Assembly (NCBI GenBank): GCA_964510865.1 | Contig: CAZEDI010000001.1 | Location: 2,297 to 66,296, forward strand | Direction of reading: 5' to 3' | Source: an uncultured Halobacteriales archaeon | Lineage (GTDB): Archaea; Halobacteriota; Halobacteria; Halobacteriales; Hikarchaeaceae | DNA: 64,000 nucleotides | Shown: positions 6,279 through 43,312 of the stretch, in pieces | How positions within the stretch are numbered: position 1 is the stretch's first letter | How the letters are laid out: the number at the start of each line of letters is the position of its first letter | Notes under the pieces: model-generated | Told to the model about the DNA's origin: nothing | Seen by the model: the letters and a program-made list of their open reading frames with translations, nothing else | The model's database searches: none | Position numbers and translations under genes: made by a program

Positions 6279-6647
6279 ACTCCGAATCCTCAGGCTCCGT
6301 GGTAACGCCAGAGGTCGACGCGTCGACAGACCCCCGACACTGGAGTGGTTATTCGCGTAGTGAAGGGCCCTCCCGGGATTGTCCCGCAGCTAGTGACTCC
6401 GAGAGTCATCCCCGGGACCTACATGCCCGGAGGGCCTTTATTACGACGGCCATAAGGAACGCAGACATGACGATAGCAACATCATACATCCTTAAAACGG
6501 ATAATTGGTGAAGTGTCGTTGTGTACTGACTATCCTGGAACAGGTATCGGTTGATGTCTTCTGCCAATTTTATCCGCTATCGAGGCCGTGTTGTTCTCTT
6601 ACCGGGGGGATAGGAAAGTGGCTGCCCGGATCAAATTCGAGGAACGA

Positions 6648-36546: not shown

Positions 36547-38325
36547 CTACCGAAGTGCGTTTAACCTGAACTCGAACGCGACGACTGGTACCTCGAGCCC
36601 ATGCTCGACGAGAACCTCGGGATGAATCTCGCCGATAACGCCCACGTGGGCACCGTCGATCACGATATCGGCGACACGTCCATCCAAGAACGTCGGGTGT
36701 TCGGACGCTGGAGTCTCGAGGTCTGCATCGAACCGCCGACAAAGGGCTTGCAAGCGTGCCTTCATATCCTCGTAGGATGCGTCGTGCCGTGCCAGCGCCG
36801 CTGCCACGGTCCGCCACTCGGCGACGTTCGTATTCTCCGTGTGATCCTCACGGGCCACGAGCCCAATCTCCGCAAGATCTTGCGGATAGGCACGATGGGT
36901 ATTGTTCGACAAGACGGTGAGAATCGATGGAAGTGCCCACGTCCTGACGATCTCATACTCCTCGGAGTAGGGTTCGGTGATCCTGACAGGCTTGCCCGTC
37001 CCGACAGTATCACCAGTACCCCAGGGTGGTCGGGTCGGCGTCCCATCATCCGGCGCGAGGCGCATCGTATCGAAGGTCCCGGCTTCGCTGACCAGGTGAA
37101 AGTTCAGCACGTCTTCGAAGCCAAGCCCCACGAGCAGCTCTCGGACCGCTCGCTCGTGGCGCGCGCGTTCGTGTCGACTACCGACGGTCGAGACGTCGGG
37201 ATAGCGCGGGTCCAGTTCGTTGAATCCGAATGCGCGCCCCACATCATCCACGAGGTCGACCGGGTGGAGGACATCTACGCGATATGGGGGAATGCGCACG
37301 TCATATGCGATCTCGTCATCGCCGACCTCCTTCGAGGTTGCATCAAGCCCCGAACGCTCGAAGAGGTCGATTGCGTCCTCTGGGTCGAGGTCAATTCCGA
37401 GGATAGTTTCGATGCTGCGATGGTCGACCGTTTTTTCATCCACGGACAGCTCAGGACGCTGCAGCTCATGGCCCTCGTCCGGGGAAATCGCGTCATCAGC
37501 GTACTGAACCTCGACAGCTTCGACCTGGCCACCACGGGCATCGAGAGCGTAACAGACGATCGTGAGCATCTTGTCGATCGTCCATTGATCGGTACCGGTC
37601 ATCTCGATGAAGAGGTCCCGCGAATCCGTCGAAACTTCGGTCCGGCGACCGTTGATCACTGGCGGGAAGGAGAAGAGCCCGAGGTCGTCATAAATCGCGG
37701 GAAGACGCTCATAGCCGGCCACAATCGGGGCGTACTCATCGCCTATCGGATGGCGTTCGAGAACCTCCCCCGGTGTCATCTCCTCGTCCGAATCGAGTGG
37801 GACGAACGTATCCTCGGAAGGCTCTAGCCCGGTATAGCGGATCGACTTCTCCCGTGCACCCTCCCCTGCACCTGGTGCTCCCTTGAGCATCGTCTGGTCG
37901 TGGACGCCGTTGGCGCCCTTCACCCGTGCTCTCCCCATCGTCGCATGCAGCTTCTCCTGGAGCTGGATCAACGACTCTAAACTCCGCTCGTCGAGGTCGA
38001 GCCCCCTGACAACCGCGCCCGTGACGTATGGACGCTGTGTGGGGACGGATTCGTCGACATATATCGTCCAGTCCGGGTCCGTGACCATGGGACGGTAGAC
38101 GCCTCGGTCGTCACCGTACTGGTAGCGAAGCGAGCGAGCCACTCCCTCGACGGAGAGGCGATCGAGCCTGTCCGGTTCGAACTCGAACTGGAGTTCGCCG
38201 TCCTCCGTGTCACCTTCGAACTCGAGTCCAAGGGCAAAGAGGTCGGACTTCAGCTGATCCTCACTCTTGTCCTCATGACCGATAAGCCGACGGAGTTCGT
38301 CCGGGTCGACGTCGACCGTCGGCAT
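36547..38325 (-). CDS. pheT: Phenylalanyl-tRNA synthetase beta subunit
   Basis: PDRLDRLSVEG.AR, LIQLQEKLH, FPPVIN, D.LHPVDL.DDV, GEIHPEVL. Confidence 0.97.
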   Translation of the reverse strand: MPTVDVDPDELRRLIGHEDKSEDQLKSDLFALGLEFEGDTEDGELQFEFEPDRLDRLSVEGVARSLRYQYGDDRGVYRPMVTDPDWTIYVDESVPTQRPYVTGAVVRGLDLDERSLESLIQLQEKLHATMGRARVKGANGVHDQTMLKGAPGAGEGAREKSIRYTGLEPSEDTFVPLDSDEEMTPGEVLERHPIGDEYAPIVAGYERLPAIYDDLGLFSFPPVINGRRTEVSTDSRDLFIEMTGTDQWTIDKMLTIVCYALDARGGQVEAVEVQYADDAISPDEGHELQRPELSVDEKTVDHRSIETILGIDLDPEDAIDLFERSGLDATSKEVGDDEIAYDVRIPPYRVDVLHPVDLVDDVGRAFGFNELDPRYPDVSTVGSRHERARHERAVRELLVGLGFEDVLNFHLVSEAGTFDTMRLAPDDGTPTRPPWGTGDTVGTGKPVRITEPYSEEYEIVRTWALPSILTVLSNNTHRAYPQDLAEIGLVAREDHTENTNVAEWRTVAAALARHDASYEDMKARLQALCRRFDADLETPASEHPTFLDGRVADIVIDGAHVGVIGEIHPEVLVEHGLEVPVVAFEFRLNALR

Positions 38326-39827
38326 TAGTACGTCACCTCCTCTGTCCGCAAATACTCGAGATCGACGAGCGTGCCATGGACGTCTCGGATGTCTTCTGCT
38401 CCAGTGACGAGCATCATGAGCCGTTCGAGGGCGAGCCCCCAGGCCATCACATCGGCATCGACGTCGAGCGGCTCTAGCATCTCCGGGCGAAAGATCCCCG
38501 AGTTCCCGACTTCGATCAGCTCGTCCGTCTCGGGGTGGGTCCCGAAGAGTTCAAAGCTCGGCTCCGTATAGGGATTATACGTCGGCTTGAACCGCAAGTC
38601 TGTAATGCCGAAGTGTTCGTAAAATTCGGTGAACGTTCCCATCAGATCACGGACTGAGAGGTCGTCAGCCATCACCCACCCTTCGATCTGGAAGAACTCG
38701 AGTAAGTGTGTCGCGTCGATCTCGTCGTTACGATAGGCTTTCTCGACGGAGAAGAATCGCCGAGGTGGCTCCAGCTCGCCGAGCGCCTCACCAGCGAGGT
38801 GGCGGGCAGATAGCGACGTCGTGTGACCCCTGAGATCGATCTGGCGGGCCATCTCTTCGCCCCACGGGGAGTGGTATCCATCGCCGTCAGGACCGACTCC
38901 CTCCCTATGCGCGGATTCGACCCGTTCGACCAGCCCTTCCGGGAGCTCCTGCATCCGGGGAACCTTGAGTGCGAACTGATCCCAGTGTGTCCGTGCAGGA
39001 TGGTCCTGGGGCATGAACAGGCAGTCGTTGATCCAGAATTCCGCGTCCGCGTGTGGACCCTCCATTTCCTCAAAACCCATGCCGACGAGAACGTCTTTCA
39101 CGCGTTCTGCCATCCGCCGGAGTGGATGGGTGCTCCCGCCGTGCATGATTTCGGCGTCCGCGGCGACATTATAGGCAGCGTAGTCTGTCGTGTCCCACGA
39201 GCCACTCGTTAGGGCCTCGGGAGTCACTCGGTCAACTTGCTCGCGAACTTCGATCCCTTCCATGAGTGCCGTCACACCGTCGTCGGTGAGGGTTGCGGAT
39301 CGAGTCGTTTGCTCGGTACGTTCGATAAGCTCGCGTCGCTCAACGTGCTCCAGGACGTCCTCGTCGGCGGGCTCACCGGAACGAACCGCCTCAAGGGCGC
39401 GTGCGTCTGGATCCTCGTCGGGATGTCTCTCTGGATTCGCGGTAATCTCGCCCCGCTCGATCTCCCCATACTCCTTTCGGGCGTAGTTCGCCAGTGCGAT
39501 GTCGACCTGATCACCGTCGAGTCCTGCCTCGTCGATAGCATCACCAAGGGGGACCGGCTCCGACTCCCCACCGAGTTCGAGCGTGGCCCGGTAGAGTCTA
39601 ACCTCGGGAAGCCCGGTTTCGGCGTATTCGGTACCCTCCCCCGTGAGTGAGATATCCAACGCGACCCCTTCTTGGAGTGCGATGAGGCCCGCTTCCTCCA
39701 GCGCGAAGAGTGCACCGGTGACTGTCTCGGGCGGGAGCTCCGTTTCGTCGGCGAGCTGTTCGACTGACATCGATTCGGTCGCGCTGGCCGTCTCGAGTAT
39801 GGCGGCCTGCGCCTGTGGGAGTTGCAT
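38325..39827 (-). CDS. pheS: Phenylalanyl-tRNA synthetase alpha subunit (archaeal)
   Basis: QDHPAR, LRGHTT, YRNDEIDATHL.EF.Q, YNPYTEPS, GNSG.FRPEM, WGLALERL. Confidence 0.97.
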   Translation of the reverse strand: MQLPQAQAAILETASATESMSVEQLADETELPPETVTGALFALEEAGLIALQEGVALDISLTGEGTEYAETGLPEVRLYRATLELGGESEPVPLGDAIDEAGLDGDQVDIALANYARKEYGEIERGEITANPERHPDEDPDARALEAVRSGEPADEDVLEHVERRELIERTEQTTRSATLTDDGVTALMEGIEVREQVDRVTPEALTSGSWDTTDYAAYNVAADAEIMHGGSTHPLRRMAERVKDVLVGMGFEEMEGPHADAEFWINDCLFMPQDHPARTHWDQFALKVPRMQELPEGLVERVESAHREGVGPDGDGYHSPWGEEMARQIDLRGHTTSLSARHLAGEALGELEPPRRFFSVEKAYRNDEIDATHLLEFFQIEGWVMADDLSVRDLMGTFTEFYEHFGITDLRFKPTYNPYTEPSFELFGTHPETDELIEVGNSGIFRPEMLEPLDVDADVMAWGLALERLMMLVTGAEDIRDVHGTLVDLEYLRTEEVTY

Positions 39828-39934
39828 AGGTTGTTGTCCGTGTTCGTGTCGTGACTGCAGTTAGCCCTTGCGAGTCCATAGCGCCAACGAAGGCGGTTTC
39901 ACCCTCCGACCGCCGGAGACGTCCACCGCCCGAT

Positions 39935-40021
39935 TCAGCTGAAAACGAAAAATCCGAATCCCAGAAAACACTCACGATCAGGCCCATCGACACAGCTCGC
40001 ATGGCGGGATTCGGGTGCCAT
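39935..40021 (-). CDS. Putative Phe-rich leader peptide (uORF) of pheST: MAPESRHASCVDGPDRECFLGFGFFVFS
   Basis: Hand-translated. ATG at 40021, TGA at 39937-39935, 5 Phe among the last 10 codons, ends 107 nt before the pheS ATG. Confidence 0.7.
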   Translation of the reverse strand: MAPESRHASCVDGPDRECFLGFGFFVFS

Positions 40022-40043
40022 ATCTCTCCAACCTGGTGACGAG

Positions 40044-40051
40044 AATAAAAA
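40044..40051 (-). promoter_or_regulatory. TATA-like box (TTTTTATT) of the Phe-leader/pheST transcript
   Basis: Lies at -30..-23 from the uORF ATG, the spacing expected for a leaderless haloarchaeal mRNA. Confidence 0.55.
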
Positions 40052-40077
40052 TGTACCGACAATTAGGTCACGCTGAC

Positions 40078-41376
40078 TCAAGCACCAGCTGTCGTGACCT
40101 GGACCGTAGTGCCGGTCACTTCGACGTCAATGAGGTTGTAGAACCCCTCGTTACCTGCCAGTATAACCGTCACATCGTCGGATATTCGTTCGATGGACAC
40201 TTCGAACTGGTCATCCACGGCATTGCGTTCCTCCGCATACGTTTCCATAGCGTTCATAAACTCATCCGCCTCACTGGGACTGTCCCATCGGTGGGCCCAC
40301 ACGACGCCCCGTGATTTGTTCTGGTAGAAGGACCTGAGGACCGCAATCTGATCAGTCCCCCACCCATCAGCTGCGGCTGCAGCCTCGTCGTCAGAGAGAT
40401 ACTCCTCCAAGACGAATCGGGTTCCGAGCTCGCCTCGCGGCCGCCGTGGATCCGGAAGCAAGGACGCAGCATGCCCGTCGATTTGCGGTTGGACGCGATA
40501 CCAATAGGATCCCGCCGTTATGTTCATCTCGAGCTCGAGCGGTTCGTCCGAGTTCTGGTGCAGGATCTGTTCCGTCGTCTGCACGGGGATGTCGCCCGAG
40601 AAGAAGTCAACGAGACCCGCGGGGGAATCCAAGGTTTCCTGGAAGTATTGCATACCTGGGCGTGATCGTTCTACGTTGTGCCATTTCTCCCAGACTGATG
40701 CATCGTCACTCCACTCGGGAGCGATATCGAGGTTCTCCCCTTCGTGATACTCCTGGGCATATGCCTGCTGGATGTAATTGACACTCCCACGAATCAGCGT
40801 ATTCGGCATGAACGCATCTTCATCTTCAGTTTCCGCGAGGGGGCCATCGATCCATCCGGTGTCGACGTTGAACGTCGTCCAGTTCTGCTGGTACATGTAC
40901 GCTCGGAAGAACTCCCCTGCGATCATGGACTGGAGTTCTGCATCGGATGCCGAATTGACGTATGAGATGTTGACGACGATTTCCTCTTCGAGCGAGTCAT
41001 ACATGTAGGGCGGCTCAACCATCGTAGATTGTGGAGAGGGAAGCGGACCGGTAAGCGCTCTGAGGAACAATCCCGACGCATTCGTGTTCCTGTTGAGGCC
41101 CGTCCCGCGATACACGACATCGATATCTGGGTACTCCGCATCGTCAATACCGGTCATCTCCTCGACGCGCTCATAGATCGTTACTGGCGAGACTGAGAGC
41201 TTAGAGGAGATCTCTTCAGATGCATCGACACTCGGACCACTGTCTCCCAGGAATGGCACTCCACTGCATCCTGCGAGAATCATAGAGAGGACCACCATTG
41301 ATACTAGTGAAATGGATCGAATTGTCTTCGGTCCCCCCGCCTGGTCATCACGTGCCGTGTCGTCAGTCACCCGCAT
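40078..41376 (-). CDS. Hvo_1808-like surface lipoprotein with degenerate zincin motif
   Basis: Lipobox ILAGC, RGELGT, AAAAADGWGTD, WAHRWDSPSEADEF. Start at ATG 41376 is uncertain. Confidence 0.7.
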   Translation of the reverse strand: MRVTDDTARDDQAGGPKTIRSISLVSMVVLSMILAGCSGVPFLGDSGPSVDASEEISSKLSVSPVTIYERVEEMTGIDDAEYPDIDVVYRGTGLNRNTNASGLFLRALTGPLPSPQSTMVEPPYMYDSLEEEIVVNISYVNSASDAELQSMIAGEFFRAYMYQQNWTTFNVDTGWIDGPLAETEDEDAFMPNTLIRGSVNYIQQAYAQEYHEGENLDIAPEWSDDASVWEKWHNVERSRPGMQYFQETLDSPAGLVDFFSGDIPVQTTEQILHQNSDEPLELEMNITAGSYWYRVQPQIDGHAASLLPDPRRPRGELGTRFVLEEYLSDDEAAAAADGWGTDQIAVLRSFYQNKSRGVVWAHRWDSPSEADEFMNAMETYAEERNAVDDQFEVSIERISDDVTVILAGNEGFYNLIDVEVTGTTVQVTTAGA

Positions 41377-41557
41377 GTCATCGTGAAAGGAGCACCCTCT
41401 TGTAAACATTTCTTTACCGCTTTCTCCGTGAAATTGCCAGTACATCGGGTTCGCTCCGCTTCACAAGTGATACCTTGCCGAAGCGGTCCCGGGTCCCAGT
41501 CTCGACAGGATTTCATGCCGACCTTCTCCCACAGCGTGGACGAAGGGGATATATCCG

Positions 41558-43138
41558 TCAACCCCGTCGTGTCGCCGCTACGTCCAGTTCAATATCGAGG
41601 TTCTCGAGCATCGCAGCCACGTCTTCTCGTTTTCCCTGGTGTTCTGCCAGGAACTCCTCCATCAGTTCTGCAGCTTGCTCCTTACACCCCCCACAGAGGC
41701 GATCACCACCGACACACTCGTCATAGACGCGTGTGGCAAACTCATCGTCGTCGCCTGCGAGCAAGTACGCGTACAACTCATAGACTGGACACTCGTCGGC
41801 CCGCCCACCGAGTTCGCGCTGGAGTTCCGCTGTCTCGCGACCGCCTGTCGTCGCGGCCAGTACCTTGTCATATCCTTCTTCGGGGTCGTCTAGCAAGCTG
41901 ATGTGGCTTGCGGGCACGGACGAGCTCATCTTTCCTCCCGTCAGTCCCGTCATGAATCGGTGATAAATGGACGAGGGCGCGTAGAATCCGTAGCCACCGT
42001 GTGCGACCTCTATTTCGCGGGCTAGCTCTTCGGCGTCGTCCCTGTCGAGGTCAAATGCGTCGACATGGGCTTCATATACCCGTTTTTCACCGTCGACTGA
42101 TTCGATCAACGCGGCAAATGCGTCCTCCGTTGCGTTGCGATCGAGGAAGCGAACGCGGGGACGGAGAGGTTCGTTGCCAGCGGCATCGAGCTTCGTCTCT
42201 ACTGACGACCGCACGGTCGACTCCTCGATGTTCGTTCGGAGCCAGTCTGCCGCTTCCTTACATCGAATCGGGTCCTCTGATTCACCCCGAAGCGTTTCGT
42301 ACGCCTCCGCGAGGAGGGTGCGCTCCGCGGGCTCGACTTCGAAACTCGCGTACGCCTCAGTGACACCGAAGTACCTCGTTCGAGCGGCGAGGTCGCGTGC
42401 CAGACGCATGTGCGGGTCCTGATCTGGTCCGACGGGAATCACCGTCGGCTTCGGCTCTTCGAGCTGGGGATACAGGATATCGGCCATCTGCGTGACGACG
42501 GACTGCATGTGCGCGACGTCCGTCTCGCCGTCAAAACCGTAGATTGCACCCAGCTCCGAGAAGTTTGCCTCGATGCCGAGCTCGAATGCCAGATCCTGCA
42601 CCTCTCTGTTTGTCGACTGACGGTACAGTTCGCCGGCCTCGGGATCGAACCCGAGTGCGAGGAGCGAGAGGAGGTAGTCCGTGGCATGCTGGTCGATCTC
42701 CTCCCAGGTGAGTCCCCGTGCAGCGTGCGCCTCGAGATCGGCGATCAGGCCGTAGGCCTCCGCACCCCGCTCCTGATGCCAGATGAGCTCGTCGAAGACG
42801 AGTTTGTGCCCGATATGGGGGTCGCCTGTGGGCATGAACCCCGATAACGTGGCGACGGGCTCGTCGTTCCGCATCGCATCAAGGACCCGTCTGTAGTCGC
42901 GATGTCCGAAAATGACGCCGCGGCGCATCAGGTAGTGTGGGTCCGGAACCTCGGGGAGGATCTCGTCGAACTCCCCAATGCCGAATTCGGTGAAGAGGTC
43001 CGCGTAGTCCCCAATCGTGGCCGAACCCCATGGATCCAAGACGACGTCGTCGGCACCTGTTGCCGTGCCGCCATCGGATCTAGGTTGCTCGTCGGCGGAT
43101 GCATCCAGTTCGTCCGTTGTATCGTGGTCGTGTGTCAT
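41558..43138 (-). CDS. trpS: Tryptophanyl-tRNA synthetase
   Basis: SGFMPTGDPHIGH (HIGH), VPVG.DQDPH-type motif PVGPDQDPH, GGKMSSS (KMSKS). Start at ATG 43138. Confidence 0.96.
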   Translation of the reverse strand: MTHDHDTTDELDASADEQPRSDGGTATGADDVVLDPWGSATIGDYADLFTEFGIGEFDEILPEVPDPHYLMRRGVIFGHRDYRRVLDAMRNDEPVATLSGFMPTGDPHIGHKLVFDELIWHQERGAEAYGLIADLEAHAARGLTWEEIDQHATDYLLSLLALGFDPEAGELYRQSTNREVQDLAFELGIEANFSELGAIYGFDGETDVAHMQSVVTQMADILYPQLEEPKPTVIPVGPDQDPHMRLARDLAARTRYFGVTEAYASFEVEPAERTLLAEAYETLRGESEDPIRCKEAADWLRTNIEESTVRSSVETKLDAAGNEPLRPRVRFLDRNATEDAFAALIESVDGEKRVYEAHVDAFDLDRDDAEELAREIEVAHGGYGFYAPSSIYHRFMTGLTGGKMSSSVPASHISLLDDPEEGYDKVLAATTGGRETAELQRELGGRADECPVYELYAYLLAGDDDEFATRVYDECVGGDRLCGGCKEQAAELMEEFLAEHQGKREDVAAMLENLDIELDVAATRRG

Positions 43139-43176
43139 TGGTCGTCGTGTCGGGTGCTCGGCAGGCGATTCGATCG

Positions 43177-43210
43177 AAAAAGCGGAGGGAGCATCGCGTT
43201 CCGGCCCCCT
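43177..43210 (-). terminator. Candidate attenuator: 7-bp hairpin plus U5 tract between the Trp uORF and trpS
   Basis: On the - strand, AGGGGGC (43210-43204) pairs with GCTCCCT (43192-43186), followed by CCGC and TTTTT (43181-43177). Confidence 0.45.
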
Positions 43211-43287
43211 TAGATCTGTCCGGCCAGAATCGCGAGACTGTCCACTTCCCGGTTCGCGTGCCAGGGCCAGGTGGAAGTGGACGGCAT
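43210..43287 (-). CDS. Putative Trp leader peptide (uORF) of trpS: MPSTSTWPWHANREVDSLAILAGQI
   Basis: Hand-translated. ATG at 43287, TGG at codons 7 and 9, TAA at 43212-43210, ends 71 nt before the trpS ATG. Confidence 0.65.
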   Translation of the reverse strand: MPSTSTWPWHANREVDSLAILAGQI

Positions 43288-43312
43288 ACCCACCCATATC
43301 GCCAGATGACGC

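Follow-up and report, generated by a model that had tools for sequence, protein, structure and literature searches.

A conserved, predicted leaderless open reading frame with clustered phenylalanine codons precedes haloarchaeal pheS and is a candidate translated regulator of pheST

Results

The window analyzed here is a 64,000-nucleotide (nt) stretch of contig CAZEDI010000001.1 from an uncultured Halobacteriales archaeon (GenBank assembly GCA_964510865.1, positions 2,297 to 66,296 of the forward strand), with a GC content of 59.7%. On its minus strand, 5' of pheS, we observed a short upstream open reading frame (uORF) ending in a cluster of phenylalanine (Phe) codons, which we refer to as the Phe leader. 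The leader uORF (40021..39935, minus strand) extends from an ATG at 40021-40019 to a TGA at 39937-39935 and comprises 28 codons plus the stop, with the product MAPESRHASCVDGPDRECFLGFGFFVFS. Its five Phe codons (codons 19, 22, 24, 25, and 27) all fall within the last 10, confirming the original prediction of a uORF at 39935-40021 with a Phe cluster just before its stop. An ORF of this size falls under gene-caller cutoffs and has no match among Rfam or Pfam families, leaving a gap in annotation.

The gene downstream, pheS (39827..38325, minus strand), matches Pfam PF01409 and is 66-77% identical to the listed haloarchaeal PheS proteins; the closest matches are metagenome-assembled genomes (MAGs) at 77% identity, with Halapricum and Halorhabdus at ~71%. 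The start of pheT (38325..36547, minus strand; 592 amino acids (aa)) overlaps the stop of pheS, which places the two genes in one predicted operon, and the assignment of pheT as the beta subunit draws on the B3_4/B5/tRNA_synthFbeta genes found at the equivalent position 3' of pheS in seven other loci (L201-L207; loci are cited by such labels throughout). The distance from the uORF ATG to the pheS ATG is 194 nt, and we regard it as real because the M-x-L-P start of PheS is shared by 78 of 80 relatives.

The two strands of the window together hold 703 ATG-started ORFs of 12-60 codons; this uORF is the only one of them with five Phe residues in its last 10, and one other has four. Such rarity is suggestive but not compelling by itself; the weight of the argument comes from conservation. 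We compared the window with 80 fetched pheS loci, one genome per species, for a total of 81. In the regions upstream of pheS, a homologous element is present at 74 of these haloarchaeal loci, the window counted, across all larger haloarchaeal families sampled. The copies share a layout in which the promoter is followed by ATGGCNYCCGAAYCC..., a variable stretch, and GGN TTC GGC TTC TTY TTC GCN NNN directly before the stop. They encode homologous peptides of the form M-A-(P/S)-E-(S/P)...G-F-G-F-F-F-A-(R/A), 22-49 residues long, with 26-28 the commonest lengths. When metagenome contigs were scanned for the exact pattern, 120 matches came back, 48 of them with the full arrangement of promoter, ATG, and uORF; the others are unrelated chance matches in other organisms. 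All 45 metagenome leaders with enough downstream DNA run into residue 1 of pheS, 167-401 nt from the uORF ATG, and none of the 45 precedes any other gene. The element is specific to pheS.

The leader is absent from seven of the 81 haloarchaeal loci (L004, L013, L016, L032, L039, L043, and L076). It was also not found in the outgroups reached, namely Methanocella, Halorutilales, a clade with a 483-aa PheS, and two others. The trpS-pheS spacer of Methanocella measures just 33 nt, pheS of the 483-aa clade is itself leaderless, and in the two further outgroups the upstream genes overlap or abut pheS. By sequence comparison, the leader looks like an innovation within Halobacteria. A contig labeled 'Candidatus Pacearchaeota archaeon' (L079, PWGL01000012.1) carries a typical Phe leader of the Natrialbaceae type, together with a pheS that shares 67% identity with that of the window, and is probably a mis-binned haloarchaeal contig. 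The long leader is lacking in a deep-branching relative, the MAG 'Halobacteria archaeon' GCA_042218125.1 (L203:1441-1485, plus strand), where a different 14-codon ORF, MGFFIVVWFNFTSS, contains four Phe and stops 7 nt before the pheS ATG, within an AT-rich spacer of a locus with 57% GC; this single example is reminiscent of E. coli PheM.

The Phe-codon tract of the window (TTC GGA TTT TTC GTT TTC; 39941..39958, minus strand) is at the same time a U-run, with T5C at 39952-39947. We assessed the reading frame at 64 loci detected independently of frame, by a TATA-anchored ATG, a helix, and a T-rich tail. The Phe codons lie mostly and uniquely in the ATG frame at 62 of the 64, with one tie and one shifted locus (L023), giving p ~2e-27 in a binomial test against one-third, a value that overstates independence because the loci are related. 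The uORFs occur in at least 10 distinct lengths, every one in frame, and the loop between the arms of hairpin P1, described below, spans 31 to 104 nt. A loss of Phe-frame conservation in homologs, which the original prediction had named as grounds for rejecting it, is thus not what we find.

Codon identity within the tract is constrained as well. For the first two codons after G-F-G, T occupies codon positions 1 and 2 in 88-100% of loci, and for the third in 72-79%, while position 3 alternates between T and C. Counted from the first G, the stop follows as the ninth codon in 51 of 61 loci. Of all residues in the uORFs, 13% are Phe, concentrated 3, 4, 5, and 7 residues before the stop, typically with three to five Phe codons in the final 8-10 codons. 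The codon TTT accounts for 28% of Phe codons in the uORFs versus 6.9% in pheS (odds ratio 5.2, p=3.5e-19). At 46 of 68 loci, P1 is abutted by a T-run of at least five. In a Haloferax volcanii reporter, a T5C insert terminated 95% of transcripts, and the authors of that study describe such T-runs as rare in coding regions (PMC7237163). We read the tract pattern as selection on Phe codons, in both frame and codon identity, beyond U-richness.

Upstream of the uORF lies a promoter consisting of a transcription factor B recognition element and a TATA box (BRE/TATA), GGTACATTTTTATT, at 40043..40056 (minus strand), read in the window and matched by a consensus over 70 loci. Within it, TTTTTATT sits at 40050-40043, the -30..-23 interval relative to the uORF ATG where the original prediction had placed it. 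The consensus reads C-G-n-A-A-C-G-Y-T-T-T-T-K at -37..-25, A/T is enriched at -11/-10, position -1 is a pyrimidine, and position +1 is A; the T-run begins at -31..-28 in 67 of the 70 loci. A haloarchaeal transcript that begins on its own start codon has this TATA-to-ATG layout. The promoter geometry, with the T-run at -30..-26, strongly predicts that transcription begins on the A of the uORF ATG or beside it, and thereby a leaderless uORF. A Shine-Dalgarno (SD)-like sequence precedes the uORF in just 5 of the 70 loci, so the GGAGAG at -11..-6 in the window, originally taken for a ribosome-binding site, is a local accident, and the TATA spacing indicates that it is probably upstream of the transcript.

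Published differential RNA sequencing (dRNA-seq) assigns H. volcanii pheS (HVO_2948) a 5' untranslated region (5'UTR) of 150-250 nt containing a 26-aa ORF, with no additional transcription start site (TSS) at pheS (Babski et al. 2016, PMC4983044, Table 2). The ORF is listed there among 16 uORFs as a possible small protein, and its Phe content, conservation, RNA structure, and regulation are not discussed (PMC4983044). Judged from position and size, it is very probably the same element; copies in the Haloferacaceae loci L009 and L064 measure 25-28 aa.

The promoter and frame data bear on the alternative that the ORF arose by chance and that the U-run serves only as the terminator of the upstream gene. 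The U-run could indeed stop read-through from upstream, and the window does contain one other small ORF with four Phe in its last 10 residues. Yet the U-run is not merely the terminator of the upstream gene, because the element has its own conserved promoter, and both are kept with a wide variety of genes upstream (trpS, divergent genes, and others). The conservation of frame, together with the covariation described below, further contradicts this alternative, which we regard as already refuted and give a negligible chance of being right. In the window, the leader occupies a 250-nt spacer between pheS and a 455-aa gene (41445..40078, minus strand) that has no Pfam match and ends at 40078, 56 nt 5' of the uORF ATG. 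The N-terminal region of its product (...MILAGCSG...) appears lipobox-like when read by eye. The minus-strand order in the window is endA, trpS, the 455-aa gene, the Phe leader, pheS, and pheT, and in many relatives (e.g. L002, L006, and L031) trpS directly adjoins the leader, without the 455-aa gene. The latter looks like an insertion into a conserved endA-trpS-pheS-pheT cluster.

Two segments of the uORF are predicted to pair as a hairpin that we term P1. The 5' arm, CCGAAUCCC, occupies 40006..40014 (minus strand; nt +8..+16, codons 3-5), and the 3' arm, GGGAUUCGG, occupies 39954..39962 (minus strand) and includes the Phe codon UUC of G-F-G; in the window the two form a perfect 9-nt inverted repeat. 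The consensus pairs CCGAAYCCC (+8..+16) with GGGRUUCGG, the latter corresponding to the G-F-G codons GGN-UUC-GG. Among 60 sequences, 11 of the 13 pairs show changes on both sides, a covariation score that none of 500 shuffles and no slid register reached. One central pair is C-G in 28 sequences, U-A in 23, and U-G in eight, and is never unpaired. RNAalifold run on a plain, unguided MAFFT alignment recovers both P1 and the second hairpin, P2, and P1 is within the minimum free energy fold at 61 of 64 loci. At four loci (L001, L050, L069, and L071) the arm sequence is unrelated, yet a hairpin still abuts the U-run. The segment enclosed by P1 is moderately stable (mean z -1.5). The Phe tract starts within or just after the 3' arm of P1, the U-run starts 0-2 nt after that arm, and the Phe codons lie 0-18 nt from the end of the U-run. 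P1 with a U-run directly 3' of it has the geometry of an intrinsic terminator, placed inside an ORF.

Hairpin P2 (39892..39931, minus strand) starts 3-4 nt after the uORF stop. Its window copy comprises an outer helix (GGGCGGU/ACCGCC), a symmetric purine loop with GGA (39924-39922) opposite GAA (39900-39898), and an inner helix (CUCCG/CGGAG); in its general form the outer helix is CGGU/ACCG, the symmetric loop is GGA(C)/(C)GAA, and the inner helix varies. P2 was found in ~54 loci, with the GGA placed 4-12 nt past the stop except in L001 (91 nt) and the helix usually beginning 0-5 nt after the stop. Covariation among 53 sequences scores 0.543 versus 0.186 when shuffled, and none of 500 shuffles scored as high; the P2 anchors were picked partly by pairing score, which favors structure, and the RNAalifold recovery is independent of them. 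The invariance of GGA/GAA is partly by construction, as detection required GA and GAA anchors. We also considered P2 as a kink turn (K-turn) of the L7Ae-binding type, but an imposed 3-nt bulge fits only 10 of 70 loci, whereas the symmetric loop fits ~54 and both flanking helices covary. An alternative helix between the tail of the U-run (UUUCGCC) and the P2 3' strand (GGCGAAA) was rejected, since it shows no covariation by eye and only trivial UUCG/CGAA complementarity.

The apical part of P2 contains CACACCGG in ~40% of loci (e.g. L025:2253-2393, L045, L067, and L069; columns ~125-140 of alignment A4). This sequence is complementary to the P2 5' strand CCGGUG, which has up to three candidate partners containing ACCG: the apical one, GAAACCG in the P2 3' strand, and GGAACCG in a motif farther downstream. 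The ACCG repeats could represent an internal switch or repeated protein-binding sites.

That downstream motif, AAGGGCUAACUGCAG (consensus GGAACCGYTAACTGAC), lies at 39855..39869 (minus strand), ~30 nt before the pheS ATG. It is kept at ~-47..-31 of pheS in all seven loci that lack the leader (listed above), and homology between L004 and L003 begins only at this distal motif. The motif resembles the BRE/TATA of the leader, GGAACGCTTTTG, and could serve as a weak proximal promoter or an initiation element; the H. volcanii dRNA-seq data show no TSS at pheS. Pairing of the motif with a fixed upstream partner was discarded, the best partners being scattered over six regions. A bacterial promoter and terminator scan of the region, of a type inapplicable to Archaea, returned nothing, and an Rfam scan at E up to 10 gave no match, T-box included.

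Conserved structure of this kind raises the alternative of a riboregulator that acts as RNA only, in which P1, P2, and the distal motif bind a protein (e.g. PheRS, the phenylalanyl-tRNA synthetase, as autoregulator) or tRNA(Phe), with the ORF incidental or its translation irrelevant. The strong covariation of P1 and P2 fits such a scheme, as do the invariant GGA/GAA and CGGU/ACCG elements (subject to the same anchor requirement) and the ACCG repeats in the P2 3' strand, the distal motif, and the apical CACACCGG. Moreover, the conservation of the N-terminal peptide is explained by the P1 5' arm. The behavior of the ORF argues otherwise: changes in loop length are all multiples of three and never interrupt it, the start codon lies at the predicted transcript start as in leaderless mRNA, the stop position is fixed, and only synonymous substitutions are seen in the Phe tract. 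In addition, six lineages without P2 and the distal motif retain the uORF, P1, and the tract, and no Rfam family matches. We consider an RNA-only element improbable. A T-box riboswitch in particular is rejected: besides the missing Rfam match, there is no Stem I or specifier loop, the K-turn geometry is absent, and the element is a frame-conserved ORF.

A further alternative is that the uORF product itself is what is selected, either as a small, hydrophobic-tailed, trans-acting protein or as an arrest peptide that senses free Phe in the manner of TnaC and Trp. The C terminus G-F-G-F-F-F-A-R/A is conserved, with the stop exactly two codons past the tract, many families share a semiconserved R-Q-P or E-P motif ~8-10 residues upstream, and Babski et al. 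treated the H. volcanii ORF as a candidate small protein (PMC4983044). Set against this, conservation is poor in the central part of the peptide, whose length ranges from 22 to 49 residues, the conservation of the N terminus and of G-F-G is explained by the RNA helix, no Pfam or NCBIfam family matches, and the ORF is always cis-linked to pheS. A peptide function appears very improbable. The upstream motif, V-x-R-Q-P / E-Q-P / R-E-P (GCCAGCC[AG]), is semiconserved ~8-10 codons before G-F-G in several families, with examples at L030, L035, L072, and L079 and in the metagenome loci L083, L114, and L174. In one Halocatena locus (L063, upstream of 2501), the ORF continues past the usual stop into P2.

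A parallel arrangement was found at trpS in the same window. The trpS gene (~43138..41558, minus strand) encodes a class-I W/Y aminoacyl-tRNA synthetase (aaRS; PF00579), and it is preceded by a Trp uORF, MPSTSTWPWHANREVDSLAILAGQI (43287..43210, minus strand), that is predicted to be leaderless, with a TATA box, AAAATATAAG, at -34..-25 and two Trp codons. Homologs with W-R-W-R(-W) precede trpS at L108 (MTSTSPTGWRWRWQDSEVDSFARPAGV) and L145 (MASTSTDCWRWRRSEVDSLAAVVRRA); the Trp leader was not found in the other 35 trpS 5' regions available, so that it is present in 3 of 38, the window included. A 10-bp hairpin pairs +6..+15, GUCCACUUCC (S-T-S), with +39..+48, GGAAGUGGAC (E-V-D), and holds the Trp codons in its loop. 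After the stop of the Trp uORF comes a conserved UGCUCCCUCCGCUUUYUCG, pyrimidine-rich and with a U-run (T5C in the window). The Trp uORF is likely the Trp counterpart of the Phe leader. Because UGG is not U-rich, the enrichment in Trp codons is not a by-product of a U-tract, and for two synthetase genes that each follow a putatively leaderless uORF rich in its own cognate codons, it is difficult to find an explanation other than codon sensing.

For trpS, the longest-ORF call (579 aa, from 43297) probably starts 53 codons too early (43297..43139), and the additional stretch overlaps the Trp uORF in another frame; the alignment of the conserved TrpRS core begins at MTHDHD.... A scan of the window for other enriched intergenic leaderless ORFs found none, with a gene mask that covered the trpS uORF as well. 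At 6409..6290, a Thr-rich ORF was dismissed as a further cognate leader, as it precedes an ABC solute-binding protein and not ThrRS.

Discussion

With moderate confidence, and on the strength of comparative sequence data, we propose that the Phe leader is a cis-regulator of pheST that is read by the ribosome and depends on translation of its Phe codons, an archaeal analog of bacterial leader-peptide attenuators that is differently built. Archaea terminate transcription with a Pol II-like polymerase, oligo-U, and aCPSF1/FttA and not with the bacterial intrinsic terminator. In the mechanism we envisage, a ribosome would load on the emerging 5'-terminal AUG and cover the P1 5' arm, so that P1 stays unfolded and the polymerase reads through the U-run, while transcripts without a ribosome would terminate there. 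Any ribosome between +1 and ~+60 would prevent P1 from forming, and P1 with its U-run would thus act on untranslated leaders only, with a pyrBI-like read-through. When Phe-tRNA(Phe) is scarce, the ribosome would stall on the Phe tract with P1 open, the U-run hidden, and P2 intact. When it is plentiful, the ribosome would reach the stop, unwind the P2 outer helix and purine loop, and leave, whereupon P1 would refold and expose the hairpin and U-tract. The exposed pair could then serve as a negative signal for aCPSF1/FttA-type cleavage and termination, or for endonucleolytic decay of the nascent or young transcript. A stalled ribosome would mask this signal and PheRS synthesis would rise, which is the homeostatic sign. 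Masking by a Phe stall would also explain why one set of nucleotides serves as both sensor codons and U-tract. The read-out itself, in which the exposed hairpin and U-tract lower pheST output, is the least certain step; we infer it, and hold it to be possible but doubtful.

The timing of events constrains this read-out. A ribosome trails the polymerase active site by roughly 25-34 nt, an estimate from bacterial expressome structures. Given this spacing, a Phe stall cannot decide intrinsic termination at the U-run of the same transcript, and the read-out therefore needs a later, factor-dependent step. In other archaea, aCPSF1 is reported to be linked to U-tracts (PMC8716108), and the factor in question would be aCPSF1/FttA recognizing the U-tract (PMC8716108, PMC11616081).

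The spacing is one of several observations that weigh against the proposal. No terminator/antiterminator pair lies downstream of the ORF: the sole conserved hairpin with a U-run is inside it, and P2 has no U-run. Neither the Phe tract nor the P1 5' arm shows complementarity to the pheS start (z ~0), leaving sequestration unsupported, and placing ribosome masks at the stop or at the stall produced no significant predicted change in the accessibility of that start. In the termination-site tables for H. volcanii, no 3' end falls within the pheS leader. Folding of the entire window leader is no more stable than that of shuffled sequence (z=0.11). The terminator signal is not universal, being without a T-run of more than 3 at 18 of 68 loci, and P2 is not essential, since six short-form leaders of the Halodesulfurarchaeum type, which end ~35 nt before pheS, lack both P2 and the distal motif. 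At two loci the Phe codons themselves depart from the pattern: in the MAG locus L023:2311-2512 the ATG is out of frame with the tract, through an indel or a real change, and in Halorhabdus amylolytica (L003:2222-2512) P1 is kept with one Phe left. We also considered programmed frameshifting at the U-run that would lead into the frame of pheS, which is rejected because the ATG-to-ATG distances cover all three residues modulo 3.

The E. coli pyrBI leader, in which a terminator hairpin and U-run lie within the leader ORF, a close ribosome suppresses termination, and UTP is sensed through polymerase pausing, suggests a different way to read the same architecture. The haloarchaeal leader might sense coupling without amino-acid specificity, its output reporting ribosome or initiation capacity (growth rate), with the Phe codons being simply a U-run read in an inherited frame, kept since the stop must sit just before P2. 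This account draws on the terminator-like hairpin and U-run that both systems have inside the ORF, on a P1 5' arm at +8..+16 that an initiating ribosome would cover, on the enrichment of TTT and T5 together with the 95% termination at T5C in H. volcanii (PMC7237163), on the fixed distance from the stop to P2, and on the geometry by which Phe decoding cannot affect termination at this U-run. It does not account for the coding character of the tract. Tract variation is synonymous (T/C at position 3), and C is avoided at positions 1 and 2 although it would be pyrimidine-rich too; the pyrBI leader has no cognate-codon run, whereas here the codons appear selected as Phe codons. The 18 loci without a T-run of more than 3 nevertheless have three to four Phe codons, the first Phe is part of the hairpin arm, with G-F-G-F conserved at the codon level, and short-form leaders without P2 hold the same frame. 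Finally, the trpS leader has Trp codons, to which no U-run logic applies, and the element occurs at pheS only. We judge a sensor of coupling alone to be unlikely.

Leader-peptide attenuation is a textbook bacterial mechanism. In E. coli, pheM is a short ORF in the pheST leader whose Phe codons cluster just before the stop. Attenuation at pheL-pheA has been reviewed (PMC3082878). The haloarchaeal leader resembles the pheM and pheL leader peptides in function as we read it; it shares with pheM an ORF with a Phe cluster near its stop in the leader of the same operon (pheS-pheT), and the proposed logic, whereby dwell time would report the supply of Phe-tRNA. It differs from pheM in being predicted leaderless, with a BRE/TATA promoter and no SD, and in having the hairpin and U-run within the ORF and built from the sensor codons. 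A search of NCBIfam and Pfam at E up to 10 with five Phe leaders and the Trp leader gave no match, the presence of PheM and PheL models in these libraries being unconfirmed. By sequence, the element is an analog of PheM and not a homolog. Of the features of a classical attenuator, it has the short leader ORF and the cognate-codon cluster and lacks an ORF-to-gene terminator/antiterminator. The original description as a PheM-like Phe leader therefore holds for the conserved in-frame Phe codons 5' of pheST, for which trpS provides a parallel, but neither kinship with PheM, given that the peptides match no Pfam or NCBIfam leader-peptide model, nor the classical PheM-type layout stands.

Other sensors of amino-acid supply share separate parts of this design. 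At tnaC, a ribosome stalled near the end of the leader ORF hides a Rho site, and the stall arises from a free amino acid together with the nascent peptide. In our proposed read-out a stalled ribosome likewise would hide a termination-factor site, but the factor would be aCPSF1/FttA acting on the U-tract and the stall would come from tRNA shortage. A Phe-specific T-box also regulates an aaRS gene through tRNA charging, and the GGUGG-containing strand seen here is superficially T-box-like. Mycobacterial leaderless polycysteine short ORFs are Cys-responsive, and a ribosome stalled on them blocks the duplex that hides the following gene's ribosome-binding site (bioRxiv 10.1101/834739). These ORFs resemble the Phe leader, as predicted here, in forming a leaderless first cistron with a run of cognate codons as sensor, upstream of genes of the same pathway, in GC-rich hosts rich in leaderless mRNA. 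They differ in that here the Phe tract was not found to be complementary to the pheS start, no accessibility switch is predicted, and pheS has no SD.

As a broader proposal, which we advance tentatively and with less assurance than the Phe leader itself, most sampled Halobacteria (not Halorutilales or the 483-aa PheS clade) may use leaderless ORFs of cognate codons for aaRS control, with Phe at pheST and Trp at trpS in at least one lineage, and with a U-tract masked from aCPSF1/FttA-type machinery. To our knowledge, very little is known of archaeal aaRS gene regulation beyond promoter-level regulators, and no description of an archaeal leader-peptide attenuator was found in the literature searched, in which subscription papers were incompletely covered. 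H. volcanii offers a tractable model, since its 5'UTR and small ORF are already mapped, though not interpreted. There, the leader provides a test of whether translation of a sensory ORF in an archaeon couples to transcription or mRNA fate, and of the way in which attenuation can work on a Pol II-like polymerase that terminates by oligo-U/aCPSF1. If our interpretation is correct, these would be the first amino-acid-sensing leader-peptide attenuators in Archaea, with a new design in which the ORF is leaderless and the sensor codons are themselves the U-tract.

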